This document shows, one piece after another, positions 4,999 to 49,639 of a DNA stretch of 64,000 nucleotides. Source of the DNA: Naegleria gruberi. Its lineage: Eukaryota. The notes under the pieces were generated by a model. That model saw only the letters and a list, made by a program, of their open reading frames with translations, was not told the origin of the DNA and ran no database searches. Position 1 is the stretch's first letter. Each line of letters starts with the position of its first letter. A program made the translations under genes and the position numbers. The stretch lies in the NCBI GenBank assembly GCA_000004985.1, contig GG738854.1, one strand, 5' to 3'.

Positions 4999-6237
4999 TT
5001 AGTTTCTTAATAAATATATAAGCTTTCCAATAAATATTAATGTAATTGGGGAAAGAGCTAAATAGGAGAAATGTCCACAACTTATCAATGCTAAACTCAT
5101 TCCAAATGCCAGTTGAATAAACAACTCAGTCCTGTCTTTTGATTTACTATTTGATATTAAATTTGAAATAGATAGAACTGATAAACTGATAGAAAGTGGA
5201 ATAAAAGAAAGTAAATGCCCACTAAGCTTGAAAAGAGAAAGACTAAGAAAGGCACCAAACATTGGATCCGAAACTTTCTCAGTAATCGTGTAGAGACCAA
5301 ATACTGTATTAGATCCAGAAATGCCCAAGAATGCTAAAAAAGGATAAAATGAATAATAAATTACTGAGCTAGCAATTGATTCCCACTTTGTAAGTTCCAG
5401 CCCAATTATTTCATAAACGAAACTCCTCACAAATAGTAGAATAATTCTCCAAATGAATGCATATATCAAATAAATACAACTACTAAAAATGGATATGTCA
5501 ATTCTTCTTTTAGGTTCAATAATTATAAATCTCATTATCTTGATAGATTTGAAAATCATTAACAATACCATAATTACAATAAATCCTATAATTAATCCTT
5601 CCACTGGCCAAAATCCATAAGGCAACCACCACAAACCCATATCTAATGACCTTTGATCTTGTGGTGTGGAAGAAACCTTTCCAACAATTAATTGAGCACT
5701 CAATGAAAAGATTATGGCAATTGCAAATACCAATTTTTCACGATGGTAAGTGTAGAATCTATATTCCCAACTATGTATTTTCAAAATACTGTCAATTGGA
5801 TCCCATTGGGAATATTCTAAACATTCGACAAGTTTCTGTTTGGAATTTACATTTTCTCTCACCTCTTCAAAACCATCTGAAGTTCCTTCGTTGTTGTCTG
5901 CTATTTTTCTCCTATTAAATAGTGTCAAAAATAGTAACTGGCTCAGTAATGACATACTATTCGAAAGTGGATTTTTCCAAAACTTTCCAATCAAGTATCC
6001 TTTCCTAATTAATTCATCATCTGAATTAAATTTAATGAGTGAAGAGAAGAAATTTGGTGGTGTGGAATTCAACACCATCTCCATTCTCTTATTAATGTGA
6101 GATAGTTTAATAATTGAAAGAGGTGAATTAGTAGTGTAGGATATGATATGGAGTAGTAATTCATCGGGAAGTTGATCAACAAATAATTGTTGTTGATCGC
6201 CATTACATGAATGGACTGCTGTTAATGGTTGTAACAT
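4999..6237 (-). CDS. F-box-like N-terminus (LPDELLLHIISY...LSIIKLSHINKRM) followed by a polytopic membrane domain (about 6 hydrophobic helices); membrane-anchored F-box protein
   Basis: ORF 4999..6309 on the minus strand. In-frame ATG at 6237 (the track start at 6309 is a non-ATG codon). F-box consensus L-P-x-E-[IL]-L-x-x-I at residues about 45-85 of the ORF; multiple 20-25 aa hydrophobic stretches in the C-terminal half. Confidence 0.5.
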   Translation of the reverse strand: MLQPLTAVHSCNGDQQQLFVDQLPDELLLHIISYTTNSPLSIIKLSHINKRMEMVLNSTPPNFFSSLIKFNSDDELIRKGYLIGKFWKNPLSNSMSLLSQLLFLTLFNRRKIADNNEGTSDGFEEVRENVNSKQKLVECLEYSQWDPIDSILKIHSWEYRFYTYHREKLVFAIAIIFSLSAQLIVGKVSSTPQDQRSLDMGLWWLPYGFWPVEGLIIGFIVIMVLLMIFKSIKIMRFIIIEPKRRIDISIFSSCIYLIYAFIWRIILLFVRSFVYEIIGLELTKWESIASSVIYYSFYPFLAFLGISGSNTVFGLYTITEKVSDPMFGAFLSLSLFKLSGHLLSFIPLSISLSVLSISNLISNSKSKDRTELFIQLAFGMSLALISCGHFSYLALSPITLIFIGKLIYLLRN

Positions 6238-6369
6238 TTTTTTAAAGTGAACTTTGAGGCAATCAATCTGATATAGATTTTGTAAATTGCATTTTGTAAC
6301 AATTAACATTTTTGTTGTACGTGTTGATATTGTTTACAATAAAATCCAACATAAAAAAAAAGGAATTAA

Positions 6370-6721
6370 ATGGGCCTATTCCAACAGAAGGAAGTTAAAA
6401 TTCTCTTCCTTGGTTAGGACGGTGCTGGTAAAACAACTGCCCTTTACAAGCTTAAATTAGACGAATCAATGGAAACAATTCCAACAACCATCGGATTCAA
6501 TGCCGAACTGATTCAATATAATAGAGATAAATTCACAATATTTGATGTTGGTTATATGGGCTAACAAACAAGATTTACCAAATGCAGTTGTTGATGTGGA
6601 TGAATTGACCAAAATTCTACAATTAAATTCCATTAAACAAACTTCATATATTCAACCATGCAGTGCTGTGCGTGGAACTGGTTTATATGAAGGACTCGAA
6701 TGGATATCCAACAATTTGTAA
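6370..6721 (+). pseudogene. ARF-family small GTPase pseudogene: in-frame TAG inside the P-loop (LG*DGAGKTT), about 60-codon internal deletion between the DVGG motif and the ANKQDLPNA (NKxD) motif with a frame change, and W-to-F at WDVGG
   Basis: Translation from ATG 6370: [63 protein letters not shown]. The C-terminal part continues in another frame: [56 protein letters not shown] at 6415-6417. No GT..AG intron can explain the deletion (only about 7 nt lie between the two segments). Not in the ORF track because of the stop. Confidence 0.72.
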
Positions 6722-6769
6722 TAAACTTTTGTAATAAAAACAAGCAACTTTGTGGCATAAAATTACAAC

Positions 6770-6842
6770 CGCCCCACGTGGGGCTCGAACCCACGACCGT
6801 TGGATTAAAAGTCCAACGCTCTACCGACTGAGCTAGCAGGGC
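6770..6842 (-). tRNA. tRNA-Lys (anticodon UUU), 73 nt
   Basis: Reverse complement folds as a canonical cloverleaf: acceptor GCCCUGC/GUGGGGC, D-arm GCUC-AGUCGGUA-GAGC, anticodon stem UUGGA/UCCAA with loop CUUUUAA, T-arm GUGGG-UUCGAGC-CCCAC, discriminator G. One nt differs from the copy at 49297..49369 (acceptor position 5 U vs C). Upstream 5' flank AATGAGCA is shared with the second copy. Confidence 0.9.
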
Positions 6843-7272
6843 TGCTCATTAATTACCACAACAAGTCAAATTTCCCATGCCAGATACTGTCACCTGCACT
6901 ATAAGATAAACATGGCTAGAAACCACAACCACTCCAATCTTTGAGGTAGTAACAATACCAGATAATAAAACAATTCCTGTTCCTTACAAAAACTACTAAT
7001 CTTTAGAAAATGTAAAAACAAGTCATGTTACAATTTCAATATGAATTCTTCTATTAAAGAGTATTAACTTCTAATAAAGTGTTAACACTCTTCTTTGACT
7101 AATTTCCTCATACTCAAAATCACTTCTAAAATGTTCGAGTCAATGTCAACCTGTCAAATAATTAAAATGAGCAACAAAGAACCAATCGGAACAATCTCAA
7201 ACATCCAATTTTAAACCAAAATCAAAAAAACATCTCAACATTGACCTTCTTCTCCTTCATCTAAAATACAAA

Positions 7273-8199
7273 ATGTCAAGTGGAATTAAAAAACTAGCAA
7301 ATTTTAGTCGTGTCAATGACATTGCAACAGATGTCAATGAATTTTTAACATTTTCATCAGGAAAATCATCATCCGATTCACAAAATCATAATTCAGTTAA
7401 TAATGATTGTAGAATATTGTTAAGAATTACATCATTTCAATTTTTACCAATTGAATTGGCATCTGACAGCGCAACAATTTCAAATCCTTTTTGTGGAAAT
7501 TGGAGAGTTAGAATTGAGTTAATTCACAATGAAAATAATGATGTGTTTGATAGTTTTTATTTTGATTTAAATGGATCTCTAGTTCAATCTCATTCTTCTA
7601 TTGAAAATGTTTTTACAAATAATAATTCTGTCAAACCATGTAAAATTGCCCTGTCAAGTGTCAATGGATCAAATTATGAAGTTTGCTCTAATTTATTTGA
7701 TATGATTTTTGAAGAAAAAATTACTTTATCATCAACTACACAACTTTCTCCCAGAAAAGAATTATATTATGCACTTTCGTATACTTTCCCATTTCCACAC
7801 TTTCTAATAGATAATTTATTCTTTAAAATTTCAATTTACACCGTCGAAAAACCATCCACTAAAAAACAACAGCAACAGCAACAAGAATTAGGAAATTCAC
7901 TTAACAATGTTGAAAATCTAGTTGCCTATTGTAAAACTGATGTCATTTCAACAATGTATCAACCTTTAAATACTACTTTTTTAAATAAGAAAATTAGAGT
8001 GAGAGCTGTTAAAAAGAAGAATAATATAACCTCTACAAATGCTTTATCATCTTTTAATACTACTATAAATGGAAATAATAATACTACCCTATCAAGTATG
8101 AATGGAATATCAAATGTTGCAGTGAATGGAATTGTTGCTAATGAAAAGGAACAAAAACCCAGATGTAATATTCAAGTTAAAGTTGAAAAATTTGTTTAA
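7273..8199 (+). CDS. hypothetical N/S/T/Q-rich protein (308 aa), no recognisable domain
   Basis: Single ORF with ATG start. Low-complexity tracts (QQQQQQ, N/T-rich C-terminus). Flanked by AT-rich intergenic DNA. Confidence 0.4.
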   Translation: MSSGIKKLANFSRVNDIATDVNEFLTFSSGKSSSDSQNHNSVNNDCRILLRITSFQFLPIELASDSATISNPFCGNWRVRIELIHNENNDVFDSFYFDLNGSLVQSHSSIENVFTNNNSVKPCKIALSSVNGSNYEVCSNLFDMIFEEKITLSSTTQLSPRKELYYALSYTFPFPHFLIDNLFFKISIYTVEKPSTKKQQQQQQELGNSLNNVENLVAYCKTDVISTMYQPLNTTFLNKKIRVRAVKKKNNITSTNALSSFNTTINGNNNTTLSSMNGISNVAVNGIVANEKEQKPRCNIQVKVEKFV

Positions 8200-9242: not shown

Positions 9243-11987
9243 TTATTCATAATCAATTGTGAGTTGTCCCTTTTCAACCAATTCAATTTCTTTTTCGGTC
9301 AGTTCAGAAATTCTTTCACCTCTATTTCTTTCGAATCGATAAGGAACAATTCCAAGAGTACCATCAAATCTATTCTTCTTAACTTGTAAATATTTGTAAT
9401 GCTTATTTCTTTGAATCATGATAATATTGTCGGCTTCTTGTGTTGCCTTTGCAGAACCAAACACACTGGAAATTTGTAATTGTTCCTTTTCGTCAATCTT
9501 CTTTGGATGGACAACAAGCGTCACGTGTACAGATCTTGTAGTTGCAAACTTTCTCAACTTTTCAATTGCCTTATCTTGTAATTCAAATCTATTAGTATAT
9601 GATGCATCAGAGGTTGACATCATAAATTGTAAATTATCAATCACAATATGAGCAACATCATATACATAGACTGCATAGTCCATAGCATCCAATAATTCGT
9701 CAATATCTGTTGAACCATAAAAGTTCAAAAAGTACATTGGTAATTCTGAGAATTGTTCACTAATAATTTCAAAATCCCTCTTCAATTCTTCTGGAGAATA
9801 TTGTCTAGCTGGTTGATAGGTTGATTTTGGCTTGGATTTAGATTCCTTAGCTGGCTTCTTTGGAGCTGGTGGAGCCTCTTCACCTGCATACGACATTAAA
9901 CTCATTGGATCAGCATCATAACTGTCAAACATGCTTGCATCTGATTCATCTTCTTCCTTTGTTTGCTCTTCTTGTTGCTCTTCAATTTCTTTGATTTGAA
10001 GACTTTCTTGTTTTCTTTGCTCCTTTTCAAATGAATGGTTGGTAGCTAAATCTTTACCAGCCAATTGACACATCATCTTTTTGATAAGTCTGTGATTTCT
10101 AATTTCAAATGAACCCCACAGTGTTGGTACATTACCATATTTACAATAGTCCAATGAAAGTTGTGAAAGAACTGTTGTCTTACCAATACCAGTGGCACCT
10201 GTAATGATTGTTAATTCTCCTCTTCTGTGCCCCTTTAAGATCTTGTTCAGACCTGGGAAAAAGTGAGATTGAACTCCATTCACAACTTCTGATTTGTCAA
10301 AAAGTTCTCTATATACTTGTTGTTTAAATGTGTTGAATGTTAAAATTCTTTCATGTTGAATTGGTGCAGCCTCTTCTATCAATCTGTGGAAGTCAAGACC
10401 TGCAAGCAATGCTTCATTTGCATCCTTAATTTTCTTTTCATTGGTTTGTTCTATTGGGTCACCATACTCATCAACTACTTCCTTATAATTCGAGTGGACA
10501 ATATAACATCTGCCAACACCAAGTTTTTTGGAGAAGAGTTCAGCTCCTTGTTGACCTGGAACATCGTCATCCATCCACAAGTAAATCTTATCAAAATCTT
10601 CTAGCCATTGGACGACATCAACTGGAAGTGATCGACATCCATTTGGTAATGAAACAGCTGGAATACCAGTCTTTTGATAGACAGCCATAGCATCAAACTC
10701 TCCTTCTGTAATGATAATTGTCTTCAAATCCTTTGGATTCTTCTTTCCCAAATCTCCATCATTTGCTAATGTCTTTCCTTTCACATTACTTTGTGGGTTA
10801 GTAGTAGTAGTGGTAGTAGATGGCTTTTCATTCTTAAATTTAGAAGCAATCAAGTGCCATCCAAATAAACCCCAATTATTTGTTTGAGGAGGATCCAATT
10901 TCATACATGTCTTATCTTGGATAGCTCTTATTTTATGTCTGGATAAAAGAATGCCACTTTCATGAGATTTGGTTGGTTTGAACATTGGGAATGTGAAACA
11001 AAGCTCATTAACTCTTACAAGGTTTTCTGTCTCTTGTTCTGGATTTTCGATTACCTTTGAAAATGGGAATACTCCACATCCAACACCATACATTGCTGCT
11101 ACATCCTTCTTGATTCCTCTTACCTTTTCAAGATATTGAACTGCTTCTGGGAAATCTACTCCATCAAAGTTGCTTCTGTATGTTTCAAACTCCTTCTTTG
11201 TTGGTTTATCCCTCTTCTTTGGTAAATTAGTTGCTGATGTTTCATTGTTTTGCCCTCCTGCTTTTGGTTGATTGTTGGATACTGAATCTGAGTGAAGTGT
11301 TGAAATTGGTGAATCCTTATGGAAATTCATTTTAAAATCAAACCAAGAACCCTTAGCTCCACATCTGTGACACATATAAGCTCCACTAGCTCTGTGAATA
11401 TATAATTTCCATAAATTAGTGACCTTTCCTTTAGTATCATGGCAGAAAGGACATTCTTTTACAATAATTTCATTCATTACATTTCTAAAGCCCAATCCTT
11501 TTCTTGTTAAAAACTCTTGAATATCACTTTCGTTGATCTTGTAAAAATTAGAAACAAATGTATTAAAAGCATTGGAGTGATTTTGAAGTGGGTTATTTCT
11601 ATCTTCTGGAGTTTCCTCAAGTGTGTCGTCATATTCCTCTTCAAACTCTTCCTCTTGTTGTTGTTTTATATTTCTATTCGGTGCTATTGTTGATGATGCA
11701 TTGGTCATTACTTGTTGAATTTTAGCATTAGAAGTTGTGGTAGGCTTTGATTGTGTTGATGTGCTTGTTGCTGTGGTATTATTATTGGTGGCTGCTGGGG
11801 TAATCTTTTTAATTACTTTTGTGTAACTAAATTGTTGGCAACAATTGCAATTATGATGATAACATCTGTGTTGTTGAGAGTTGTTGATATTGTGCAAGTG
11901 TTGATGATGGCCTTGTTCGGAAGGTAAATATTTGCTTCTCGATGAGACAATAGAGTTTTTGAAAGCCTTTGAAACCAACTTTCTCAT
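9243..11987 (-). CDS. Twinkle-type (phage T7 gp4-like) mitochondrial DNA primase-helicase, 914 aa. N-terminal presequence, Cys4 zinc finger, TOPRIM primase domain, DnaB-like helicase domain
   Basis: Zinc-binding motif CPFCHDTKGK...CHRCGAKG. TOPRIM IIITEGEFDAMAVYQKTGIPAVSLPNGC ... IYLWMDDDVPGQQGAE. Walker A ITGATGIGKTT. RecA/DnaB-like C-terminus (VHVTLVVHPKK...FGSAKATQEADN). Intronless ORF with ATG at 11987. An acidic low-complexity insert (EEQQEEQTKEEDESD) sits between the linker and the helicase core. Confidence 0.85.
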   Translation of the reverse strand: MRKLVSKAFKNSIVSSRSKYLPSEQGHHQHLHNINNSQQHRCYHHNCNCCQQFSYTKVIKKITPAATNNNTTATSTSTQSKPTTTSNAKIQQVMTNASSTIAPNRNIKQQQEEEFEEEYDDTLEETPEDRNNPLQNHSNAFNTFVSNFYKINESDIQEFLTRKGLGFRNVMNEIIVKECPFCHDTKGKVTNLWKLYIHRASGAYMCHRCGAKGSWFDFKMNFHKDSPISTLHSDSVSNNQPKAGGQNNETSATNLPKKRDKPTKKEFETYRSNFDGVDFPEAVQYLEKVRGIKKDVAAMYGVGCGVFPFSKVIENPEQETENLVRVNELCFTFPMFKPTKSHESGILLSRHKIRAIQDKTCMKLDPPQTNNWGLFGWHLIASKFKNEKPSTTTTTTNPQSNVKGKTLANDGDLGKKNPKDLKTIIITEGEFDAMAVYQKTGIPAVSLPNGCRSLPVDVVQWLEDFDKIYLWMDDDVPGQQGAELFSKKLGVGRCYIVHSNYKEVVDEYGDPIEQTNEKKIKDANEALLAGLDFHRLIEEAAPIQHERILTFNTFKQQVYRELFDKSEVVNGVQSHFFPGLNKILKGHRRGELTIITGATGIGKTTVLSQLSLDYCKYGNVPTLWGSFEIRNHRLIKKMMCQLAGKDLATNHSFEKEQRKQESLQIKEIEEQQEEQTKEEDESDASMFDSYDADPMSLMSYAGEEAPPAPKKPAKESKSKPKSTYQPARQYSPEELKRDFEIISEQFSELPMYFLNFYGSTDIDELLDAMDYAVYVYDVAHIVIDNLQFMMSTSDASYTNRFELQDKAIEKLRKFATTRSVHVTLVVHPKKIDEKEQLQISSVFGSAKATQEADNIIMIQRNKHYKYLQVKKNRFDGTLGIVPYRFERNRGERISELTEKEIELVEKGQLTIDYE

Positions 11988-19568: not shown

Positions 19569-19649
19569 GCGGTCTTGACCGAGTGGTTAAGGTGATTGAC
19601 TAGAAATCAATTGGGGCGACCCGCACAGGTTCGAATCCTGTAGACCGCG
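19569..19649 (+). tRNA. tRNA-Ser (anticodon AGA), 81 nt, with long variable arm
   Basis: Acceptor GCGGUCU/AGACCGC, D-arm ACCGAGUGGUUAAGGU, anticodon stem AUUGA/UCAAU with loop CUAGAAA, variable arm UGGGGCGACCCGCA, T-arm CAGGUUCGAAUCCUG, discriminator G. Followed by TTTTTTT (pol III terminator). Confidence 0.9.
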
Positions 19650-30788: not shown

Positions 30789-31784
30789 ATGTCTCAACAA
30801 CAAACATTGCTTTTAACTGGATCAACTGGTACTATTGGTAAATTGCTCATTCAACAATTGCATTCCACCAAGCAAGAAGCACACTTGAAACTCAAACTTC
30901 TTGTCAGAAATGTTGAAAAAGCTAAGGAATTATTCGATGCATTGCAATCTGATTCGTTCCAATTAGAATATATTCAAGGTGATTTGCCAATCAATGACAA
31001 ATCAGTTAATACTGAGTTGTTATTTGATAAGGTTGAAAAGATTTTCATTTTGGCACCTGATGTTCCTCAAAAGGTAAACCTTGAAAAGTCAATTGTCGAG
31101 AAGGCATTACAATACACCAAAGCATCAAATGGTCAATTGAAACAAGTTGTTAAATTGAGTGCATTAGGTGTTAGTAGAGATAGAGAAACCAACAATTTGC
31201 TTCGTTGGCATGCAGATTCCGAATACGAAATTTTCCAAGCATTGAATCATTACAATGAGGTCAATTCTGACAATACTGTTTCGCATGTATTTATTAGACC
31301 TGGAATGTTTATGCAAAATATCTTGGGTGGTTACGAGCACTATTATTTGATGAATCATAATATGATTGTAAGACCTGATTTGAATACTAGACACTCTTAT
31401 ACTACCTCCTTTGTTGATGTTAGAGATTTAGTTAAGATTATTTCATTAGTTTTATTGGAAACTGATGTCACTAAATATGGTGATAAAACATTTACTATCA
31501 CTGGACCATCAACAACCACCAATCAAGAATTTGTTGAAATTGTCAGTAAGGTATTGAAAAGAGATATCCATTATGAGAAAGTTTCTGAATTTACTTTTAT
31601 GAATATGTTGAAAGAAATGCAAATTCCAAATGACTATATTTGGATGTTGATAAAATTATATCAAACTGGTAAAGAGAATGGAGCCGCAAGTATTATTTAT
31701 GAAGATTTTGAAAATATTACTGGAACTTCGCCAACAACTTTTGAACAATTTTTATTGGATCATTTGAGCTATTTTAATCAATAA
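30789..31784 (+). CDS. NmrA-like family NAD(P)-binding Rossmann-fold protein (atypical SDR), 331 aa
   Basis: N-terminal GxxGxxG motif LLLTGSTGTIGKLLIQQL. Overall NmrA/HSCARG-like length and block order (…VKLSALGV…, …FIRPGMFMQN…, …TFTITGP…). Intronless. Confidence 0.6.
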   Translation: MSQQQTLLLTGSTGTIGKLLIQQLHSTKQEAHLKLKLLVRNVEKAKELFDALQSDSFQLEYIQGDLPINDKSVNTELLFDKVEKIFILAPDVPQKVNLEKSIVEKALQYTKASNGQLKQVVKLSALGVSRDRETNNLLRWHADSEYEIFQALNHYNEVNSDNTVSHVFIRPGMFMQNILGGYEHYYLMNHNMIVRPDLNTRHSYTTSFVDVRDLVKIISLVLLETDVTKYGDKTFTITGPSTTTNQEFVEIVSKVLKRDIHYEKVSEFTFMNMLKEMQIPNDYIWMLIKLYQTGKENGAASIIYEDFENITGTSPTTFEQFLLDHLSYFNQ

Positions 31785-32072
31785 TTACAAATTTGGAGCA
31801 TGGTTTTTATAAATTGTAATAAATATTATTATTTTATATGAAATATCAACTGATAAAGTGTTATTTCTTAAAAACTATTAAAACTATAAAAATGGAAATC
31901 TACGATAATAGTCAATTTCCATAAATAGAAATGGAGTTTCTTAATTTTGTGGTTCCACCATAATTATTCACCTACATAGCAGAATAAACACCTCATGTGT
32001 TGATTTTTCTAATAAAAAATTAAACAATCTTTAAAATTAGTCTCCTCAACCGATTTTTAATTTCTAATAAAA

Positions 32073-33812
32073 ATGGCAAGAGTAAATGATTATTATTCGA
32101 TGGATTGTTCTCCAGAATTTGAAATTAGCAATCATTTGAATTCTTCCTCACAGAAATGTACAACTTTCCACTCATCAACTAATCAAATTCTACCAGATGA
32201 AATTATTCAATATCAAATAATACCATTTCTTGATGTGGAAACTTTGTGTTGTAAATTTAGTTTACTTTCTTCACATTTATATAAATTGGCTGAAGACAAT
32301 TTGTTGTGGAGAGAAAGATTTTTCAATACTCTGCCAAGTTCTCAATTAGAATTCTTTCAGAACAATCCACTTTATTGGAAACAGTGCTATAATTCAAAAT
32401 CAACAAGAAACTACTTTCTCTCACTTTCTCCAACACTTCACGAAAGAATTTATCCTTCTCTTGATGCTTTCAGTGTCAATTTCAAAGATTTGTACAGAAC
32501 AACATTTGTTGAGGGCCGTTTAGAAGGAAATCGACTGCTCAACTCTGGTAATTATAAGAGAGATCAATTCTCACACCACATTACTTATTATTATCTGATT
32601 GACATTGCTCAGAATTTGAAATTGACAAATGAAGAACTTCGATTGGTTGACAAGGTTTTCGATCAATCAGTTTCTCCAACCATTGAATTTTTCAGAGGAA
32701 GAACAAGAGAGAAGGGTGCTCTAAATGATGATGAAACTCGTGAATATTATGGAGTATTTGGTATTGTAATTGGCATCTATTTTGTAATGTATCAGGAATG
32801 GATGTCCAATGATTTGAGAGCTCATGTCATTGGTAGAAAATTAACACATCGAGTGAAGGAAGTTTCCAGACATGGAGATGAAATACAGAGAGAGGGTGCG
32901 AGTGTTGAATTGAGAACTCATGATTCTGCATTCGATTACAAATACTTTTACAATGAAAAGTTGACATCCACTCCAAAAAATAATGATGATTTTGAACTCT
33001 CGAAATTTGTAAATGGTGATGAGAGTTCTTATCCACAATACTTGTATTTGAATCAATCCACAGAAGATAAATGGGATCAGAGAAGTAAGAGTCAACCAGT
33101 GAGCCTTACTATTCATGGAGTTTGGAGTGATAATAAGGAAAGATGTGGTTTGTTCACAAGTGAAAATATTGATTGGTCAACCAGTGTTTTCGATTTGGCA
33201 ACCCTAGGCAGTAAATTACATGATGTCAATTATAGAAGAGTGTACAGTGTTGATAATGAAGTTAAAATATTCTCCAAGTTGACTGCATTCAAGTATTGGA
33301 AGATGACAACACATATCAAAATAGACGCCACTCTCTCCAATTTCCAATCGACAGAATATAATGTCTCATTTGATTGTGATGCGTATGTGAGAGGAGAGGC
33401 AGCTGTTGCTATTCACCATAGTCAAAGTGGACCTTCATCCTATTCACATCAACATCATACTCATTATCAAATTGTTGGTAATGCAGTGGACAGTTACTTT
33501 TCATTCAATTTACTCAATCGAGGAGAACACATGTTCTTGGCATGGTGTATGTTTGATGATATGAAGAATGAATCCAAATTGAAGAGCGAACAAGCAATCA
33601 GAACTAAAGTTATTACTCCAAAAGAAGCTCCAATCACACCTGAAAAGGTATTGAGTGAGGAGAGAAGAAAGATGGTCCTATCATCAGACAAGTGTGGAAT
33701 GTTTCCAACCATGGACCAATTCAAACTTTCAGGAATATTGGTAGATCGTGATGGAGTGAAGGGATATGTTGAGCTAGAGCCAAGAATTCACCTCAAACAA
33801 CAACAGCAATAA
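32073..33812 (+). CDS. F-box protein (579 aa) with N-terminal F-box LPDEIIQYQIIPFLDVETLCCKFSLLSSHLYKLAEDNLLWRERFF
   Basis: Single ORF. Classic F-box consensus at residues about 40-85. C-terminal region has no recognised motif. Confidence 0.55.
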   Translation: MARVNDYYSMDCSPEFEISNHLNSSSQKCTTFHSSTNQILPDEIIQYQIIPFLDVETLCCKFSLLSSHLYKLAEDNLLWRERFFNTLPSSQLEFFQNNPLYWKQCYNSKSTRNYFLSLSPTLHERIYPSLDAFSVNFKDLYRTTFVEGRLEGNRLLNSGNYKRDQFSHHITYYYLIDIAQNLKLTNEELRLVDKVFDQSVSPTIEFFRGRTREKGALNDDETREYYGVFGIVIGIYFVMYQEWMSNDLRAHVIGRKLTHRVKEVSRHGDEIQREGASVELRTHDSAFDYKYFYNEKLTSTPKNNDDFELSKFVNGDESSYPQYLYLNQSTEDKWDQRSKSQPVSLTIHGVWSDNKERCGLFTSENIDWSTSVFDLATLGSKLHDVNYRRVYSVDNEVKIFSKLTAFKYWKMTTHIKIDATLSNFQSTEYNVSFDCDAYVRGEAAVAIHHSQSGPSSYSHQHHTHYQIVGNAVDSYFSFNLLNRGEHMFLAWCMFDDMKNESKLKSEQAIRTKVITPKEAPITPEKVLSEERRKMVLSSDKCGMFPTMDQFKLSGILVDRDGVKGYVELEPRIHLKQQQQ

Positions 33813-33927
33813 ATTTCAAAAATAAATTTCAATATCTTTCAAAATTATCCACACATTCAAAAAGTTTCATATTTCAATTTAAAAATAATTTAGTTGGCAA
33901 AATTTTGCAGCATTATTACAAATGAAC

Positions 33928-34924
33928 TTATTGTTCTCTCTTTCTTAATTCTTCTTCATCCTCAGTTTCTTCACTAATCAATTTTTGAATATCAAATGTG
34001 TACTCAGCAGAACCACTTCCGAATCCCTTAACTAACATGTTCTTTTCAATGTATTTATCAAAAGTTTCAGAAATTTCCTTATCGTTACCCTTGAGCATGA
34101 CGTACTTTTCAACAGTTTCCTTGGCCAAGAATGGCTTGACGAAAGCCCAGATCATTGAAATAGTCCAACCAGCATTGAGAACCATAGTACGAGCCAATCT
34201 TTCAGTGTAATAATTACCCAATTGCACGAATCTAAATTCAATAATTGTAAATTACATTCAATAATAATACTAAATACATACGTATCCTTCATTTCCTTGA
34301 CCAAACCCATTGAGAGTGATGAGTCCTTCAAGTCAACCAACCAAACAATATTGTTAACACCTTCTGGCATTCTCTTGATGCACTTTTCCATCATGTAGAC
34401 GAAGAGTTTGAACTTCATCTTCTTATTTTCTTCAGTATTGTCAGCAGTGTCCTTACCCAAGAGACAGTAGATAATTGGACGACCAGACTATTTTTCATCA
34501 TCATCAAATTAAAATCCATAAAGTAAAAAGCTATTTCTACTATTACAACTACTATTATACTAACCTTATCATAACCATAATGGTAGAGGAATCCTTGCTT
34601 GGCAATTGGTTCAAGATCCTTCAATCTAATATCTTGTGGACGGAATGAAGCTCTCCAATCCATAGTTTCCTTCAATTGCTTGGAGGCAACTTCCATATTC
34701 CATTGCAAACCAGAAAGATAACGGAAGAGACACATGTCATCAAGGAAGGCCTTTTGTTCTTCATCCAAATTCCAAGTTTCACTAATCTTACGAAGGTCTT
34801 CCATGAGCTTCTTTTGTTCATCAGTGAGTTTAGAGAGTGGTGAAACAACAGAAGATCTAACTTCTTCAGCTAATTTACCATAGGTTTCATCTCTTCCGGA
34901 AGGTAAGAAACTGTCTCTGACCAT
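33928..34924 (-). CDS. Sec14-like / CRAL-TRIO lipid-transfer protein, 289 aa. Three exons: 34924..34565, 34487..34282, 34231..33928. Introns are 77 nt (GTTAAGT...AATAG) and 50 nt (GTATGT...TTTAG)
   Basis: Exon 1: CRAL_TRIO_N (DEQKKLMEDLRKISETWNLDEEQKAFLDDMCLFRYLSGLQWNMEVA) ...GFLYHYGYDK. Exon 2: SGRPIIYCLLGK...FKLFVYMMEKCIKRMPEGVNNIVWLVDLKDSSLSMGLVKEMKD. Exon 3: TFVQLGNYYTERLARTMVLNAGWTISMIWAFVKPFLAKETVEKYVMLKG... This matches the Sec14 YYPERLGK...NAPW...KPFLD signature. Phases are consistent (0, 2). Confidence 0.75.
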
Positions 34925-36205
34925 TTTGATTTCTACATGAATATAATCAATATTTAAATTATTATATAACAATATATTTTCATCAAATCACATAAATTAT
35001 ACAACAAAATCAAAAACGGATAATTATTATGATGAGTAAATCATATTGATTTAAATGATCCAAAAATCACACAAGTTATAATCACCACCATTGATGCAAA
35101 TCACCATCATCAACACGTCAATCAACAATATGGAATAACAATAATTAGCCTTTGGAAAATTCCATCACACAAAAAACATACAAGTTGAGGAGAAGGTTTA
35201 AGAATTTGAGTTTTTTTTAAAAATCTAATTTGTGTGCTGGATGATGAAAGTAGATATTGCTGATGAACCAAAGGGCAGAATGCAAATAAAAGGTGAGAAT
35301 CATCATCCTAACGGTAATGTTCTTGATGAGTTTGGTGGAGGTATGGATTATTATCTTGTTTCCAAAGCGATAACTGTCATTAATATGAAATATTGTTACT
35401 TGGTGAATAAATATGTAGAAATAGTCGGCTTTGATGACCGTTACGCACTATTCCCGCTCATTAAATTTATTAATTTAAAAAAAAGTCTTTAAAGATTCTT
35501 GAATTACCTCTTGATAATCGGGTTCTTGTATCAAATCAATTGAATAATAATAATTTTATGTAGATTAAACTATTGTGCTGAACTCGAAAAGATTGTAAGC
35601 ATCAATGCATATATCTTTTGAGTTTGGAATTTCTTGCTTGTACAGAATGCCAAGCAGTGTCGATGGTTAGATTGGAAATTAGAAACAACAAAGGCAACAA
35701 CATGGATTGTCTTTTAAGTGTCGCATGTTTAATAGTAGATCCACTGTGCGCTTACTGAAAGTTGTTGTTAGTAAGATCCTCAAAGGGATGATAAACTCCA
35801 CTCACGAATGTTGCCTCTTAATTTCCAAAAGGCCCAATTCATTTCGAAAAGGAAACAACCTGTAGAGGCTTTTAACTTGTAGTACCAAGTTCAGTGAGCC
35901 AATGAAGAAAGAAACAAAGCAAGGACCTCTTTCAGTCAATAGTTTATCTTTGGATCACAATTTAATGTTGTCTTTCATTGAATACTGTTGTGATATGTTA
36001 ATGTTTGTTTGTATTTAACACATGAATGGCTAGATTAATTTATTTCGTGCATACAACTGATGTCTAAAACATTTTTGTTTGGAGTTGTCATGGCATCTAA
36101 CTCTTGATTGTGAAATACCCCATAATTGTAAGGTTTAATTCTCATTCGGACAACCCAAAATTCGAGGGACCAAAACACAATTCAAACGAAAACAAAAACA
36201 ACAAA

Positions 36206-39200
36206 ATGGTGCACCAAACTGAGTCGTCACCACTTTCCCATGGTGTTGAATCAGAAAGCTGCCGAAAGTCATCTGCGCATCACGGATTAACAACAAGAAC
36301 TCTTCCTCTCATAACGATCCTTCTATTCATTGGATATTGTTGGGTTTTTGTATCATCTTTAACTTTTTTATGGAATCACTCAACTACTAGTAATTACACA
36401 CGCAATTCGCCCAGTTTCGTCTTCATTGAAGCTGCTAATATTTGTTACACAATTTCAAGTACTGATCCAACCGTTTGCTCTGGTAATGGCACATGTATTG
36501 CTTTGAATACTTGTCAATGTTATCCAGGCTATTCAGGTAAGTTTACTTTCGAATTAACGTTGTGATAATCATTTCGTAGGAAATAAATGTACAACACTAA
36601 TAACATGTAATAACCTTGGAGTTAATGATACACAGGTTTGTTCGGGGCACGGTGTTTGTATCGCCAAAAACAATTGTACATGTACAGATGGATATTCAGG
36701 AGCTAGATGTCAAACCGCCATGCAATGTTATGGAATTGACTTTACCAACACGACCTATGTCTGTAACGGTAATGGTAATTGCACTGCTGCCAACAACTGC
36801 ACCTGTAAAGATGGATTTTCAGGTACCAGATGTCAAACAATCAGACAATGTAGTAACATTGATTTTAATGATCCAACAGTTTGTTCTGGCAAAGGATCTT
36901 GTGTTTCGAATAATAATTGTGAATGTCTAACTGGTTATACAGGTAGTCAATGCCAAAATGTCATGAAATGTTACACAATCCCATTTAATGATCCAAGCGT
37001 TTGTTCTGGAAAAGGTCAATGCATTGCTTCGAATAATTGTTCATGTATTCAAGGATTTTCTGGGACTAAATGTCAGAATGATGATTCTATATTTACGTGT
37101 TTTGGTTTTAACTCGACTAACCCTTTGGTTTGTTCTGGAAATGGAAATTGTACATCGAATGGAAATTGTACATGTAAAGAGGGATTTTCTGGGACTAAAT
37201 GTCAAAATGATGACAGCTACTTTACTTGTTATGATATTGATCCATCAAATACAACCTATGTCTGTAATGGAAATGGAAATTGCACAGCTCAAAATAATTG
37301 CACTTGTAAGGAAGGATATTCAGGAACCAGATGTCAAAACGCCATGCAATGTTATGGAATTGACTTTACCAACACGACCTATGTCTGTAACGGTAATGGT
37401 AATTGCACAGCTGCCAACAACTGCACCTGTAAAGATGGATTTTCAGGTACCAGATGTCAAACTAACAATAATTTAATTACATGTGGTGGACTACTTCCAA
37501 TTGATCCACAAGTTTGTTCTGGAAATGGAAATTGCACTGCCAAAAATAATTGTGATTGCCTTTATGGATACGTTGGTAATCAATGTGCTGATTTACTTCA
37601 ATGCTTTACAATTAATTACAGTGAAAGTTCTGTTTGTTCTGGAAATGGAATTTGCATTGAAAAAAACAACTGCTCCTGCTTTGATGGATATACAGGAAAC
37701 AAATGTCAGACATCAATTCTTCATACATGTTATGGATTAAATGAAACTGATCCACTGATATGCTCTGGAAATGGACAATGTGTTCAGAACAATAATTGCT
37801 CATGTATTTATGGATATAGTGGAAATCAATGTCAAAAAGTGTTGAAATGTCACACCATTACATTCAATGATCCATTGGTATGTTCTGGAAATGGAAATTG
37901 TTCGTTGGATGGAAATTGTACTTGTAAACAAGGTTTCAGTGGTAACAAGTGTCAAAATGATGATTCAGTTTTCTCATGTTACGGTTTTAATTCGACAGAT
38001 CCATTGGTTTGTTCTGGAAATGGTAATTGTACTGCTGACAATCAGTGCAATTGTACAGATGGCTTTAGTGGAAATAAGTGTCAGAATAATGATAATTTAT
38101 TCACATGTAATGGAATTGATTCGAATAATGCAACTGTTTGTAGTGGAAATGGAATTTGTATTTCACAGAATAATTGTTCTTGTTTTTCTGGATTTTCTGG
38201 AAACAGGTGCCAAAAGGATGACAATTTTTTCACTTGTTTTGGTATTGACCTATCAAATTCCACAGTTTGTAATGGAAATGGTATTTGCGTTTCACAAAAC
38301 AATTGCACCTGCTTTAGTGGCTATTCAGGAAACAAATGTCAAAATAATGACATGATTATCAGATGTTACGGAATTGAGTCTACTGATAGCTCAGTATGTT
38401 CTGGTCGTGGTAATTGCACCTTTGATAATACTTGTAAATGCAAAGATGGATTCAGTGGAAGTCAATGTCAAAATGATGATAATATTCTCAAATGTTATGG
38501 AGTTGAGTTCAACAGTCCATTTGTTTGCTCTGGAAATGGAAATTGTTCTTCATTTGGTAATTGCTCATGTTTTGAGGGATTTTCAGGGAAAAAATGTGAA
38601 TTTGATTTGAATTCCAATGAGACAGCATCATCTAATTATACATGTTATGGTATTAATGGTGGATTATCTACTGTTTGTTCAGGAAATGGAAATTGCATTG
38701 CAGATAATGTTTGCGAATGTTTCTATGGATTTGATGGGTCTCAGTGTCAGAAAACACTTCAATGTTATGGAATTGATTACAATAATCCAAGCGTATGTTC
38801 AGGCAATGGTATTTGTAATTCAAGAAACTCTTGTTCATGTTATGAAAATTACGTTGACACCAAATGTCAAACGTACAGAGATCCAAACGCCACCTCATTC
38901 AAATGTTATGGTGTTCAATCGAATGATTCAAGTGTTTGTTCTGGCAGAGGAAACTGCACAGCAGATAATTTCTGTGAATGTCAAACAGGCTTTAAAGGTT
39001 CCAAATGTCAAAATTTGGTCAACTATTGCTTTGGCATTGATGAATATTCCAACAATGTTTGTTCAGGAAATGGAAAATGCACAAGTCAAGATACATGTGA
39101 ATGCTCTTCCAATTATTTTGGAAACGATTGTGGTGTTTACATTCTTCCAGAAACAAGTACAATCAAGATTCTTTCCAAATATTTGTATTTGATTGATAGT

Positions 39201-42008
39201 GCAACAGAGAATAATGTGATAACAGTTAGATCACAAAGATTGGTTAATAATTATAAGGGAATGGAAAGTAGATTGAAAAGCGTGTTGATTTTGTCAACTG
39301 AGCTAGTCAATTATGAATTTTCCCAAATTGGGCTTTTTGACAAGTTACAATTGTTTTCAAATATGACTGTTGGTGAATATACAGCAAATTTGACGATTGT
39401 AGATACTGGTTACAATATTGTTGTTGGACAATCTATTGTAAAGTCACTATTTAATGTTATGACTCTCCAACAATTGAGTCAACCTGAAATTCTTTCAAAA
39501 TTAACACCTAAGGAAATTAATCAAATTACAAGAGAATTGAAAAGAATATCAAATGACCAACAAGTTGTCTCCAATATAGTTTCGAATTTCAAGGATAATG
39601 TCAATAACTATACTTTGGATGATGGTTTGGATTTGACATCTTCTTTATTAGATTTGTCAATAACTAAATTAGAATCTAAAGAAAAGATAACTATTTCAGA
39701 AACATTAACTTCTTTCACGCAGAATTTAATTGAAAGCTCGTCAAATTTCACTTCAGAACAAGTGACACCTATTGCCATCAATATTGTGTCTGTGGCTTCA
39801 AATATTCTCGACAATTCTGGCGATAATTCAGCTGGTAAATCGCAAATAATTGGAAAGTCAATCGAATCTATTGAAAAAACTATTTCTTTAATTTCAGTTG
39901 TAAACTCGACAGAAAATTTATTGATTACAACTTCAAAGATTATGGTTTTGCTAATTTCCAAGGCAGAATATAAGAATTCACACGTGATCGATAAGGATTA
40001 TTCTTTATCTCTTCCAGAACTCGATTTTGGATTTTCGTTTGGTTTAGTCAAGTATGAAAATTATTTGACAGATGACTTACAGAATACTACAGCTATTTCA
40101 GATATTCTACAAGTGAGACCATTATCAAATGGAGTATTCACACCACTCCGTAATCTTTTAACTCCATTCAACTTGACCTTCTCTATTAAGAAATACGAAA
40201 CCCCAAATAATGAAACAATCGCAACTGTTGTTTGTAAATATTGGAATGAAACAAGAAGTGAATGGTTGAAGGACGGCTGTGTAACTACAATATTATCAGA
40301 AACTCAAGTAATGTGTTCTTGCTATCACACAACCAAGTTTTCTTCATTTGTAGATTATTCGAATATTGACTTTACAACAAGAACAGCTCAATCTTCACTT
40401 GCAGTTGCTAATATTATATTTAGTTCTATATTCATTGTAATCATTATTGTAATTCTCATTCTATTAGTGGTGTTTAGAAAATCTCAACCTGTCAAATCAA
40501 GACACGTGACTCCTTACCTTGCATTGACATCCTTACTCATTGAAAACTTAGTTTCTGGAATAATTTCTAAAGGACTTTTACTTGACAAGTACAATTTCAA
40601 TATAACCATCATGACAAGCGTCTGTGCAGTCATTTCTACTGCTTTATTGACAAGCGCAGTTTGGTGTTATTTCGTCATGTCTGTTCGATTCATTATTCAT
40701 AGATATTTCTATGAATACATGATGAGAATAGTAGAAAATAGACAGCAGAAGAATAATCTATTAATCAAGATTTTGAATATTTTCAAGCAAGATAAGGTTT
40801 TGATCTTGTCAAGTGTCATGCTTGCTGTTGGATTTATTTTATATTTTGCTATTTTTGTAATTTTGAGAGGAGTTTCTGTATTTTCTGATTCACAATTTAC
40901 CTATTCAACTACTATTTCATTATTTATTTTTTTACTTTCAATGACAGCAATGATTTTTGGCATTTATATTTTAGATTTTTATTTGGATTGCACTAACAAG
41001 CAATTAAGAGATGAATTGGTTGATATTTCAGATGAAATAATGTTAGTAGAAAGTGGAGACTCCCACCTAAGCAATTTGAATTCCAGAAAATCACTCAAGA
41101 TTACAAAACCATTTATTGAGCTATTGGAACAATCTCAAGTGAAAAAGATTGTGAGCTTGTTTTATTCGAATGACAAGCTCATGTTTAGACCAGAGGCAGT
41201 TTTCTTCATGACTGGTATGCTCTTCTTTACAGTTTCGTACTGTTTAGGATTTGCAAGCGTCAATGATCGTTACTTAATCAACCCTTCAGCTGCCATAACT
41301 CAACATGTTGATGTGTTAGATGCCATATCATTCCTCTTTGACATTCTCATGACTATTTGTTTTATCATTAGTTTCGGTGGTTTCTCCGTTTGTTGGGCCA
41401 TTGTAATTGAATCCAGAAAGAAGAATTGTTTCGTTGAATCTAAACAAGTTGTTATTAAGGAACGAATTAAGTCTCAAAGATTGGAAAATCTTGCAGATAT
41501 GACCGACAAGTTTGATATTTACAAACTCATGAAAAACAAGTATTTGCTTAGATTATTCCGTCAATATTCGAAACTGGAAATGTCATTAGAAAATTATGTA
41601 ATTTGGATGAGAATTGAACATGCCAAGTCTAAATTTGCTAAATTATGGATAGAAATGGAAGGAGAACCAGAATCGATTGAGGAATGGAATTTATTGTTAC
41701 AAGAATTGGAGGAATGGTTGACAGAGCATATTTCATCAGAAGCTGAGCTATCTCTCAATGTCAGTGCTCGTTCAAAGAAGCAGTTTGTGACAGCAGTGAG
41801 AGTATTGGAAACTAAGGTTGCAAGTATTCCATCAAAGAATAGAGATTCTTTATTGAATTTGAAACAAACTGTCAGAGATGCTATTGAATCATTGACCACT
41901 GATGTTTTATATAATTTGATGGACACTTATTCAAGATTTATCATTACTAATGAATACAAAGCCATGAAGGAAGTAGAAGCAGTTACAGAAATGACAACTT
42001 TCAAATAA
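36206..42008 (+). CDS. adhesion-GPCR-like receptor (about 1919 aa): signal/anchor, about 35 tandem Dictyostelium/tenascin-type EGF repeats, spacer, GPS-like motif, seven TM helices, cytoplasmic tail. Two exons: 36206..36536 and 36580..42008, with a 43-nt intron (GTAAGT...CGTAG)
   Basis: ATG at 36206 (MVHQTESS...), followed by hydrophobic LPLITILLFIGYCWVFV. EGF unit C-x(8-12)-C-[SN]-G-x-G-x-C-x(4-5)-C-x-C-x-x-G-[FY]-x-G-x-x-C repeated about 35 times. GPS-like CKYWNETRSEWLKDGCVTTILSETQVMCSCYHTTKFSSF. Seven hydrophobic helices between about 40380 and 41400. Exon 1 ends ...CYPGYSG in phase 1 and joins to KCTTLITCNNLGVNDTQVCSGHGVC... Confidence 0.75.
36705..36838. repeat. intragenic near-identical duplication (about 134 bp, 2 mismatches) of one EGF-repeat unit; second copy at 37329..37462
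   Basis: AGATGTCAAA[C/A]CGCCATGCAATGTTATGGAATTGACTTTACCAACACGACCTATGTCTGTAACGGTAATGGTAATTGCAC[T/A]GCTGCCAACAACTGCACCTGTAAAGATGGATTTTCAGGTACCAGATGTCAAAC occurs twice, about 620 bp apart. It encodes AMQCYGIDFTNTTYVCNGNGNCTAANNCTCKDGFSGTRCQT in both copies. Confidence 0.85.
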
Positions 42009-42308
42009 CATTTTAAATAGCTGATTGTGAATAGTGATAACTAGTGTTAATATTTTATTGAATGAAAATTTCTGGTAGATTTAGTTTACAGTAACCATTG
42101 TATTACACAGATATTTACAGTTCATTGTAATTTAGGATATCCTCTTTAAATGTTTCGAATAGCTTTAATAATGACAGATGTTTTCCATCAACACAATTTT
42201 TTGTTTTTCGTAGAACACATTTATACACCAACTCGTCAAGTCACTCATTTCGAATTAGGAATTCATCATTTCCATCAGCACAACAGAAACTTAAAAACAC
42301 AAAAAAAA

Positions 42309-44342
42309 ATGCAAGATTCCATTAGCACCAGTAGCTCTGGCAGTAGTAGTAGACAATTCATCAATCCAAGCTTGTTTAAACCATACTCCGCTACACCTTC
42401 TTCTGAGCAAGGTCAACAAGACGAAACAATTTACATTTCGGATAAACCATTTCCACTATTCGAATTCGATGCTACCAAAGAGAAATGGCAGATGAATCAA
42501 GATGCCTTTGCTAAATTAGAAACTGTGAGTGGTTCTGGCTTTGTGAAAGTAATTTCTGTGGTTGGTGCCTATCGTTTAGGTAAAAGTTATTTGATGAATC
42601 AGATAATGAATGGTAAGAAAGGAGGTTTCGAATTGGGACACACCACAGAGAGTATGACTAAAGGTGTATGGGCCTGGGGTGAGGTTGTTCATGATCCACA
42701 AGTTGGCACTCATATTCTTCTCTGTTTGGATTCTGAAGGTCTTTTAGATGTCGATAGAGAGGACGAAACTTTTGACATGTCACTTTTCTGCATATTGACA
42801 ATGTTGTCAAGTTATATGATTATCAATTTGGAAAAGAGAATAAGTAGCGATGATCTTAACAAGTTGGCTTTTGCATCTGATTTTACAAATATGATTGTCA
42901 CTGATCAACAAGATGACAAGGATTACAATCATGAAGATATTCAATATTATACTCCACAATTATTATGGCTAGTAAGAGATTTTACATTGAAATTGAAAGG
43001 AACAGAGCAAGAATACTTGAATGAGATATTAAATGAAGAGGATAAAAAGAAAAAGTCAAATGTCTCTCTAATTAAGAAGAATATTAAGAAGTATTTTGGT
43101 GACAAGATGGAGCTCAAGACTTTACCATGTCCAAGCAGTGATGAAGATGTATTGACAACCATTGAAGAGAGTGGTGATCAATTATCTGAGAAATTTGTTA
43201 ATGGAATGAAATCTTTGGTCAACCACATTAGAACAACAGCTTCCCTTAAAAAGATACTTTCTCCAAAGAGTAATCGTGAAATGTATCTCGACACAATGGG
43301 ATTTTACTATTATTGTAGAAAATTAGTGGAACAATTGAATGAAAATGCCAAACAAATTCAAATTCCAAACACATTCGAATCAGTCTTGACACAACAACTT
43401 GAATCTATTCTAAACGAAACGTTGGAGAATTATGATAAGAAGATTCAAAGCTTTATTGCTAAATTCCCAATTGAGGAAGATTCCCTCTTGGATATTCATA
43501 GTGAAGTTTCCAATTTTTATATGCAGAAAGCTCTCAATAGAGTTCCACATTTCAAGAGAGAAGAATTCCATGAAACTTTGTTGATTTCCCTTGGAGAAGT
43601 TTCGTTTAAGGATAATCCAGAAGAAGTTCAATTGAATTCTAGTTCCAAACTATACAATCTTCTTGAGAGAAACAGGGACGAATCTGAAAGATATTGTGAA
43701 CAAATCTATATTAAGGAAATTAATTCTGTCAAGTCAAAGATGTACTCTGTTGTTGAACAATGCAGAAGTGATTTGGAATTTGTTAGAGCTAATCTTCTTC
43801 AACAATTGATGGGTCCAGCTGCCAACAAGTACATGACTAAATTCTTCAGTGAATCCCAAGAAATAATGAAACAAACTATTCTCTGTCAAAAGATTGATCA
43901 AGCAGAGAAGGAAAAGGAGGTTTTAAAGGAGGAGATTTATAATATGAAAGAACAAAGAAAGCAACTGGTTGAGCTCATTCAAAAAGAACGAACACAAACA
44001 AACTCTGCCATGCAACAATTGCAGAGTCAACAACAAGCTCTCGAACAGCAAATTCAATTAGAAAAACAATCAGCCTCAAGTCAGATCAGTAACTTGAAAA
44101 ATCAATTGGAAAATATACCAAAGGCCACACCAACAGTCATTTACCAAACTGTTTCAGAGCCAAGCAAAAGTACTTGTAGTAGTAGTAGAAGTAGTAGATA
44201 TTACTCTAGCTCAGATGATGATGATTATTATTCAAGAGGTAGTAGAAGAAGCAGTGGTGGTAGAAGTGGAAAAACATTTTACAAAGGTGGCCAGTTTATT
44301 CCAGGTGGTGGAAGAGCTCCAAAAGGAGGCGTTTGGATGTAA
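42309..44342 (+). CDS. guanylate-binding-protein (GBP)-like large GTPase of the dynamin superfamily, with C-terminal coiled-coil and Ser/Arg/Gly-rich tail (about 677 aa from ATG 42309)
   Basis: GBP-type G-domain VISVVGAYRLGKSYLMNQIMNGKKGGFELGHTTESMTKGVWAWGE...ILLCLDSEGLLD...LSSYMIINL. Helical/coiled-coil region (QQLQSQQQALEQQIQLEKQ). Tail SSRSSRYYSSSDDDDYYSRGSRRSSGGRSGK. The track ORF starts further upstream (42150) at a non-ATG codon. Confidence 0.7.
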   Translation: MQDSISTSSSGSSSRQFINPSLFKPYSATPSSEQGQQDETIYISDKPFPLFEFDATKEKWQMNQDAFAKLETVSGSGFVKVISVVGAYRLGKSYLMNQIMNGKKGGFELGHTTESMTKGVWAWGEVVHDPQVGTHILLCLDSEGLLDVDREDETFDMSLFCILTMLSSYMIINLEKRISSDDLNKLAFASDFTNMIVTDQQDDKDYNHEDIQYYTPQLLWLVRDFTLKLKGTEQEYLNEILNEEDKKKKSNVSLIKKNIKKYFGDKMELKTLPCPSSDEDVLTTIEESGDQLSEKFVNGMKSLVNHIRTTASLKKILSPKSNREMYLDTMGFYYYCRKLVEQLNENAKQIQIPNTFESVLTQQLESILNETLENYDKKIQSFIAKFPIEEDSLLDIHSEVSNFYMQKALNRVPHFKREEFHETLLISLGEVSFKDNPEEVQLNSSSKLYNLLERNRDESERYCEQIYIKEINSVKSKMYSVVEQCRSDLEFVRANLLQQLMGPAANKYMTKFFSESQEIMKQTILCQKIDQAEKEKEVLKEEIYNMKEQRKQLVELIQKERTQTNSAMQQLQSQQQALEQQIQLEKQSASSQISNLKNQLENIPKATPTVIYQTVSEPSKSTCSSSRSSRYYSSSDDDDYYSRGSRRSSGGRSGKTFYKGGQFIPGGGRAPKGGVWM

Positions 44343-49247: not shown

Positions 49248-49296
49248 ATAAGGCAATATGACGCGAAATTTGCCTTTCGGGAGTATAGAATGAGCA

Positions 49297-49369
49297 GCCC
49301 CGCTAGCTCAGTCGGTAGAGCGTTGGACTTTTAATCCAACGGTCGTGGGTTCGAGCCCCACGTGGGGCG
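49297..49369 (+). tRNA. tRNA-Lys (anticodon UUU), 73 nt, second copy
   Basis: GCCCCGCUAGCUCAGUCGGUAGAGCGUUGGACUUUUAAUCCAACGGUCGUGGGUUCGAGCCCCACGUGGGGCG. Canonical cloverleaf followed by a T10 run (pol III terminator). Shares 5' flank AATGAGCA and 3' flank GTTG[TC]AATTTT with the copy at 6770..6842. Confidence 0.9.
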
Positions 49370-49639
49370 GTTGCAATTTTTTTTTTGCGCCTTAACGTTT
49401 TTTTGAGAGTTCTAGCATTTGTTGAAACTCTATTAAGAAAAAATAAGACAACATCTTGTTCTAAGGAACCTGCTGTTATTAAGAAATCCGCTCTGCAATT
49501 AATACCCTTGTTAATTACAGAGAAATCACACAATACAATAGAATCAAATTGGTTAAATTGTGATTAAGCTCCATCACCATTTCGAATTATATTCAATTCT
49601 ATATAATATTATTATTCAATCCTAACCACTCGGAAGAAC

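Follow-up and report, generated by a model that had tools for sequence, protein, structure and literature searches.

The locus described here raises the question of how the broken remnant of an ARF-like GTPase gene came to lie beside a tRNA-Lys gene in the genome of Naegleria gruberi. The window, i.e., the whole stretch of 64,000 nucleotides that was analysed, had been the subject of an earlier note, in which the adjacency was read as a possible footprint of retrotransposon machinery. We consider it very probable that the remnant is a strain-specific pseudogene, inactivated at its original site within the NEG-M lineage and derived from a lineage-specific, intronless ARF1-type paralogue that was working until recently. 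Decay in place is the preferred explanation because a closely related strain keeps an intact gene at exactly the same site.

The homology of the remnant can be traced in two separate pieces. With human ARF1 as the tblastn query, residues 11-69 match window positions 6373-6552 in frame +1 (60% identity, E=1e-17) and residues 120-177 match 6545-6718 in frame +2 (51% identity, E=8e-13), while the joined translation of the remnant reaches 114 bits against Pfam Arf (PF00025; E=5.5e-33, cut-off 22.3). The same query detected no other ARF-like segment or parent gene within the 64-kb window. The remnant starts with ATG GGC, continues with a 60-residue piece in frame +1 and then a 57-residue piece in frame +2, and ends with a TAA at 6719-6721, which is separated from the 3' end of the tRNA-Lys gene at 6770 by a spacer of 48 bp. 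Its P-loop motif G1 (GxxxxGK[ST]) is broken, reading LG*DGAGKTT in the window, where P0227, the product of the intact allele introduced below, has GLDGAGKTT. The G3/switch II motif DxxGQ with its catalytic Gln is absent from the remnant, where the sequence is deleted after DVGY; the intact allele reads DVGYG at this point and has no Gln either. The ANKQD (G4) and CSA (G5) motifs are kept, but they stand in frame +2 and are out of frame with the start codon. The 58-aa GenBank entry EFC47492.1, which covers these last motifs, is a C-terminal fragment of the ARF pseudogene and thus an annotation artefact. It should carry a pseudogene-fragment flag, although beyond annotation this has little significance. 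The features of the locus and of the tRNA genes discussed further below are collected in Table 1.

Table 1. Features of the ARF-like remnant, its lesions and the tRNA genes, in window coordinates.
Feature	Position	Strand	Evidence
Retained 5' intergenic (promoter) region of the ARF gene	6310..6369	+	57/58 aligned bases identical to L013 (98.3%)
ARF-like pseudogene, remnant of a 178-codon gene, ATG to TAA	6370..6721	+	tblastn, Pfam Arf, L013 alignment
Junction of 15-nt in-frame deletion after ATGGG; TCAACTGCTAGGAAA lost (codons 3-7, QLLGN)	6374..6375	+	L013 alignment
Nonsense TAG in the P-loop; TTG (Leu) in L013; T>A at 6416	6415..6417	+	L013 alignment
C-terminal ORF of 58 codons, EFC47492.1 / XP_002680236.1, 'predicted protein' NAEGRDRAFT_31587	6545..6721	+	Exact look-up
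Junction of 170-nt frame-shifting deletion (L013 334-503)	6554..6555	+	L013 alignment
13-nt tandem duplication TTTGTAATAAACT spanning the stop codon	6715..6727	+	L013 alignment; placement ambiguous within the repeat
116-nt unit: tRNA with about 32 nt 5' and 11 nt 3'	6759..6874	-	Repeat search, 91% vs 49265-49380
tRNA-Lys(UUU) copy 1, convergent with the pseudogene	6770..6842	-	ARAGORN; Rfam 68.7 bits
tRNA-Ser(AGA)	19569-19649		ARAGORN and Rfam
116-nt unit, second arm	49265..49380	+	Repeat search, 91%
tRNA-Lys(UUU) copy 2 (C5 instead of T5)	49297..49369	+	ARAGORN; Rfam 70.9 bits

The key to the history of the remnant is an intact gene at the same site. The 90%-identity cluster of EFC47492.1 includes a protein of 178 aa, P0227, which is encoded by an ENA metagenome contig of 1296 bp (L013, sample ERZ929261). 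This contig is collinear with window positions 6225-7359 and carries an uninterrupted 178-codon ARF-like ORF at 133-669. It keeps the starts of both neighbouring genes, including the upstream gene on the minus strand, and the downstream gene is represented by its first 85 bases, without a single difference between contig and window. The convergent tRNA-Lys gene is present as well, 35 bp past the ARF stop, with 73 of its 73 bases identical to copy 1 of the window, and the 430-bp intergenic region beside this tRNA gene is 97.4% identical, with one 2-nt indel. A second contig of the same sample (L014, 6789 bp) aligns to window positions 31034-37794 at 98.0% identity. Since L014 is thus also about 2% diverged, L013 can be taken as the orthologous locus of a sister strain. 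The sample would accordingly hold a Naegleria sister strain about 2% diverged from NEG-M, an assignment of the organism that follows from the identity of about 98% only. With a disabled ORF in the window and an intact syntenic orthologue in L013, the remnant would qualify as a unitary pseudogene.

The comparison with L013 also touches the upstream neighbour. The first 25 codons of a 436-codon ORF at 4999-6309 (window 6235-6309, minus strand) are 89% identical to L013 and contain indels of 4 nt and 9 nt, so that this stretch differs more than the adjacent intergenic DNA, which is 98% identical. It probably does not code for protein, and an ATG at 6234 is the more likely start of the gene. Neither start version of the ORF matches an annotated protein exactly.

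All four lesions of the NEG-M copy are defined against the alignment with L013 133-669, to which the pseudogene is collinear, with 98.0% identity over aligned bases. The 170-nt deletion takes out the region from switch II to the residues immediately preceding the NKQD motif. Imperfect repeats of a TTGGT(T)ATGG motif lie at both of its ends, and the junction is not a clean single-copy product; slippage is a plausible origin. The 13-nt duplication at the stop codon accounts for the spacer between stop and tRNA gene, which measures 48 bp in the window in place of the 35 bp in L013. Apart from the nonsense change, six further substitutions are found in the remnant, which gives 7 substitutions in 345 aligned bases (2.0%); the intergenic DNA next to it has 11 in 430 (2.6%). 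Two of the seven are synonymous, the other five being non-synonymous or nonsense, a pattern that fits the absence of constraint, with numbers too small for a test.

Most of what the earlier note had said about the remnant itself is thereby borne out. That an ARF-family gene lies dead at this site is supported by tblastn, by the Pfam Arf match, and by the TAG together with the frame-shifting deletion. The TAG indeed falls in the P-loop, at the Leu position of GLDxxGKT. The proposed loss of about 60 codons with a change of frame measures 170 nt, or about 57 codons, against the intact allele, and the coordinates agree with the distance of 48 bp given for the convergent tRNA-Lys(UUU). Two lesions had been overlooked, namely the 15-nt deletion after codon 2 and the 13-nt duplication at the stop. 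A change of WDVGG to FDVG, which had been counted as decay, has to be withdrawn from the list: the intact allele reads FDVGY, so the F is ancestral, and FD[IL]GG is present in the closest relatives P0001, P0131, P0132, P0135 and P0137. The extra T in TIPTTIGFN was also considered as a sign of decay and rejected, as the intact allele P0227 has the same T, which is therefore ancestral.

Two other accounts of the remnant have to be weighed against decay in place. The lesions could be artefacts of assembly or sequencing, or one of two NEG-M haplotypes could be dead while the gene is still functional in NEG-M, and the existence of an intact version at only about 2% difference lends some credit to this idea. 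However, four independent lesions fall inside about 350 bp, in addition to ordinary substitutions, and the adjoining 430-bp intergenic region shows just the one 2-nt indel. Moreover, the divergence of L013 matches that of L014 over 6.8 kb, which marks L013 as coming from another strain and not from the same DNA. We therefore regard an artefact, or a single dead haplotype beside a functional one, as very unlikely. The other account holds that a processed, retro-transposed ARF copy was placed beside the tRNA gene by tRNA-targeting non-LTR retrotransposon machinery. It draws on the tRNA gene 48 bp away, on the lack of introns in the remnant, on an A9 run at 6353-6361 and on the report that N. gruberi carries some retrotransposons (PMC12344493). 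Against it stands, above all, the sister strain, in which the site, its flanks and the tRNA gene are the same and the ARF gene is intact. The A9 run lies 5' of the ATG, which is the wrong side for a poly-A tail, and is also found in L013, whereas downstream there is just an A5 run. Direct repeats that flank the remnant are no longer than 8 nt, a length reached by 229 of 1000 shuffles, and the start codon and the 5' region are kept, so that the copy is not 5'-truncated. The lack of introns is uninformative because the relatives are likewise intronless or uninterrupted: the three relatives whose loci were read, P0133 of N. fowleri and P0134 and P0137 of N. lovaniensis (L002-L004), are encoded by single-exon loci of 531-534 nt, and P0001 and P0227 are uninterrupted ORFs too.

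The surroundings of the tRNA-Lys genes point in the same direction. None of the 12 window ORFs tested, among them all those flanking both tRNA-Lys genes, contains a transposon-type Pfam domain, reverse transcriptase and integrase included, and the repeat search found no repeat near either tRNA-Lys gene in the 64 kb except the tRNA unit itself. At the two window loci, no retroelement sequence (reverse transcriptase, LTR or poly-A end) was found at a fixed distance from the tRNA-Lys gene; host genes sit 48-430 bp from both. The earlier note had proposed a search for target-site duplications and poly-A remnants around the remnant, and none were found. It had further argued from dictyostelid-type genomes, in which tRNA genes serve as landing pads. 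The translations of ten long ORFs in the window match N. gruberi proteins exactly (EFC47492, 47493, 47496-47500, 47503, 47504 and 47506), all from one scaffold of 665,159 bp, and these matches identify the window, with a GC content of 30-36%, as DNA of N. gruberi NEG-M. This organism is a heterolobosean and not a dictyostelid, and hence the landing-pad premise does not carry over. Given the intact syntenic allele and the failed tests for a retro-copy, a processed copy is therefore ruled out for practical purposes, and the claimed footprint of retrotransposon machinery, which would have to be reconciled with an intact gene in L013 and with the lack of both a poly-A tail and a target-site duplication, is extremely improbable.

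The tRNA-Lys gene next to the remnant has a near-identical partner in the window, and both are well above the Rfam RF00005 threshold of 29 bits. As noted before, the copies differ by one nucleotide; the difference lies at position 5 only, where copy 1 has T and copy 2 has C, and the T5 of copy 1 gives a U5-G68 wobble. The report of shared immediate flanks holds as well, with 8/8 identical positions on the 5' side (AATGAGCA) and 10/11 on the 3' side (GTTG[T/C]AATTTT). The similarity of the 5' flanks reaches to -34, with 24/34 identical positions, a value that only 7 of 200,000 random pairs of 34-mers from the window attain. It is concentrated in conserved blocks, i.e., GAAATTTG at -32 to -25, GTA, and the octamer at -8 to -1, which are separated by diverged spacers, and there is no flank similarity past the limits of the 116-nt unit. 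Of the proposal that the tRNA locus was duplicated recently together with its flanks, the sharing of flanks beyond chance thus stands, but the recent date does not: any duplication must be old because the flanks differ by about 25-30%, as compared to a neutral strain divergence of 2-3%.

The 116-nt unit is best described as either an old small-scale duplication or a set of conserved Pol III flanking elements. Under the second possibility, the Lys-UUU family would have conserved Pol III promoter, leader or terminator elements in its flanks, and the sharing would not go back to a duplication; this is a serious but tentative candidate towards which we lean slightly less than away from it. The similarity is block-like and has a fixed spacing, with diverged spacers between the blocks, and both strain differences in the 5' flank of copy 1 sit in a spacer (6858-6859). 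On the other side, the tRNA-Ser(AGA) gene at 19569 is without these blocks, the comparison rests on two Lys copies, and five loci of an unrelated organism, whose tRNA-Lys genes are identical, have no more than a short CATGA motif in common upstream. Among the metagenome contigs, no further Naegleria tRNA-Lys locus matched the 58-nt core, and a 26-nt scan returned 8 tRNA-Lys loci, all from other organisms and with different acceptor stems, which serve as a control for flank conservation only. The two Lys genes belong to a very large tDNA family, and their presence in 64 kb is in itself expected, as 924 tDNAs have been reported for N. gruberi (PMC2888827). The 3' sides of the two copies are not equally rich in T: past the similar 11-nt stretch (6759-6769 and 49370-49380), copy 2 has a T11 run, whereas copy 1 has TTTT only, and the next T5 run after copy 1 follows about 27 nt further. 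Copy 1 may thus terminate less efficiently and read towards the 3' end of the ARF remnant.

The protein encoded by the intact allele is a divergent member of its family. P0227 is 68% identical to P0001 from the same metagenome, 61% to P0131 of NEG-M ("ARF/SAR family small GTPase"), 56% to members from N. fowleri and N. lovaniensis and 54% to the canonical Naegleria Arf1 (P0165). P0227 belongs to a Naegleria-specific, Arf1-derived clade, within which it occupies a long branch. The clade is marked by KILFLG, by GFNAE and by F or Y replacing the W before D[IVL]GG. In word-seeded, non-exhaustive protein searches, P0131 (61-63% identical) came out as the closest annotated protein of NEG-M, and a closer NEG-M paralogue is unlikely. 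Compared with P0001, the remnant and P0227 alike have a dN/dS of about 0.2 (dN 0.21-0.22, dS about 1.1); therefore, purifying selection acted on the lineage during most of its history, and the death of the NEG-M copy is recent. The loci L002-L004 of N. fowleri and N. lovaniensis share no common neighbour with the window locus and have no tRNA gene nearby, and for these reasons they are not orthologous to it. In the searches run, no close counterpart of P0227 was found outside the N. gruberi lineage.

P0001 (L001 468-1004), the pseudogene's nearest distinct relative, comes from the same sample, ERZ929261, as L013 and L014. The best NEG-M protein found for it is again P0131, which is only 76-77% identical, though the Naegleria of this sample shares about 98% identity with NEG-M. 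Perhaps NEG-M has no orthologue of P0001, or has one that is unannotated or has decayed as well; alternatively, a second Naegleria may be present in the sample.

Over its whole length, P0227 can be aligned with Arf1/Arf2 chains of solved structure (E=7e-48). In common with the Arf1-type GTPases of yeast (Arf2, 1mr3) and human (ARF1, 1hur) it has Gly2, GLDGAGKT, NKQD and CSA. Unlike them, it has a shorter N-terminal helix and a one-residue insertion in switch I (TIPTTIGFN), and in switch II it reads DVGYGTFFGHNS where Arf1/Arf2 have DVGGQDKI, without the catalytic Gln and with 4 extra residues. In the alignment, this 4-residue insertion and the missing glutamine appear as DVGYGTFFGHNSRKLFHHLY in P0227 against DVGGQ----DRIRSLWRHYY in yeast Arf2. 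The remodelled region as a whole, FDVGYGTFFGHNSRKLFHHLY, is without the DxxGQ glutamine. The window copy is, in addition, truncated and out of frame. On these grounds P0227 may be an atypical, possibly GTPase-deficient paralogue, and given its aberrant switch II, constraint on the intact gene may have been relaxed even before the lesions arose in NEG-M. A bolder version, namely that P0227 is an inactive 'pseudo-GTPase' that is limited to the N. gruberi lineage in the searches run and strain-polymorphic, intact in one strain and dead in NEG-M, seems improbable to us. If true, a young GTPase duplicate would here be seen halfway between the gain of a new function and loss. More speculative still is the idea that the head-on tRNA gene, 35 bp off, promoted the deletions by stalling replication forks.

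Several other genes of the window deserve mention. The ORF of 913 aa at 9243-11984 on the minus strand has Toprim and DnaB-like helicase (AAA_25) domains; it is a Twinkle-type primase-helicase and presumably the mitochondrial replicative helicase. A 730-aa ORF at 42150-44339 on the plus strand contains the N-terminal GTPase domain of guanylate-binding proteins (PF02263, E=1.7e-46). At 36433-39165 there is an array of about 18 diverged repeats of 120-129 nt, which encode EGF-like Cys-rich modules and include a 188-nt pair with 91% identity (36656-36843 and 37280-37467). This array has been placed inside a 1762-codon gene at 36720-42008 (EFC47500.1).

The history of the ARF locus is most probably one of decay in place. 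On this account, the gene is a young, fast-evolving duplicate within the Naegleria-specific ARF clade, and its adjacency to the convergent tRNA-Lys(UUU) gene is ancestral gene order in a compact genome and not the outcome of an insertion. In the NEG-M lineage, this duplicate then acquired the TTG>TAG change, the 15-nt in-frame and 170-nt frame-shifting deletions, and the 13-nt duplication at the stop. Such a loss would be in line with the usual birth and death of genes in an expanded GTPase family. ARF duplications in terminal lineages are described as common, and putative pseudogenes were deliberately excluded from the eukaryote-wide survey of the family (PMC8358228). The locus therefore offers a clean, datable case of strain-level gene loss in the expanded Naegleria ARF family, and it illustrates that a gene remnant beside a tRNA gene is by itself no evidence of retroelement activity.

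With the Dictyostelium elements TRE5-A, TRE3 and DGLT-A, the locus has a sole likeness, which is the presence of non-tRNA sequence near a tRNA gene. Unlike at the sites of these elements, there is no element sequence, reverse transcriptase, poly-A tail or target-site duplication here, and the adjacency is ancestral. The closest comparison is with unitary pseudogenes, which are likewise disabled at their original position by nonsense mutations and deletions, with an intact orthologue in a close relative. Within the ARF family, the human ARF2 pseudogene is also unitary and a once-functional ARF paralogue (Vargova et al., 2021; PMC8358228). The locus of N. gruberi differs from it in that the loss occurred at strain level, at a genome divergence of about 2%, in a heterolobosean amoeba, and in a gene whose intact version has a non-canonical switch II.
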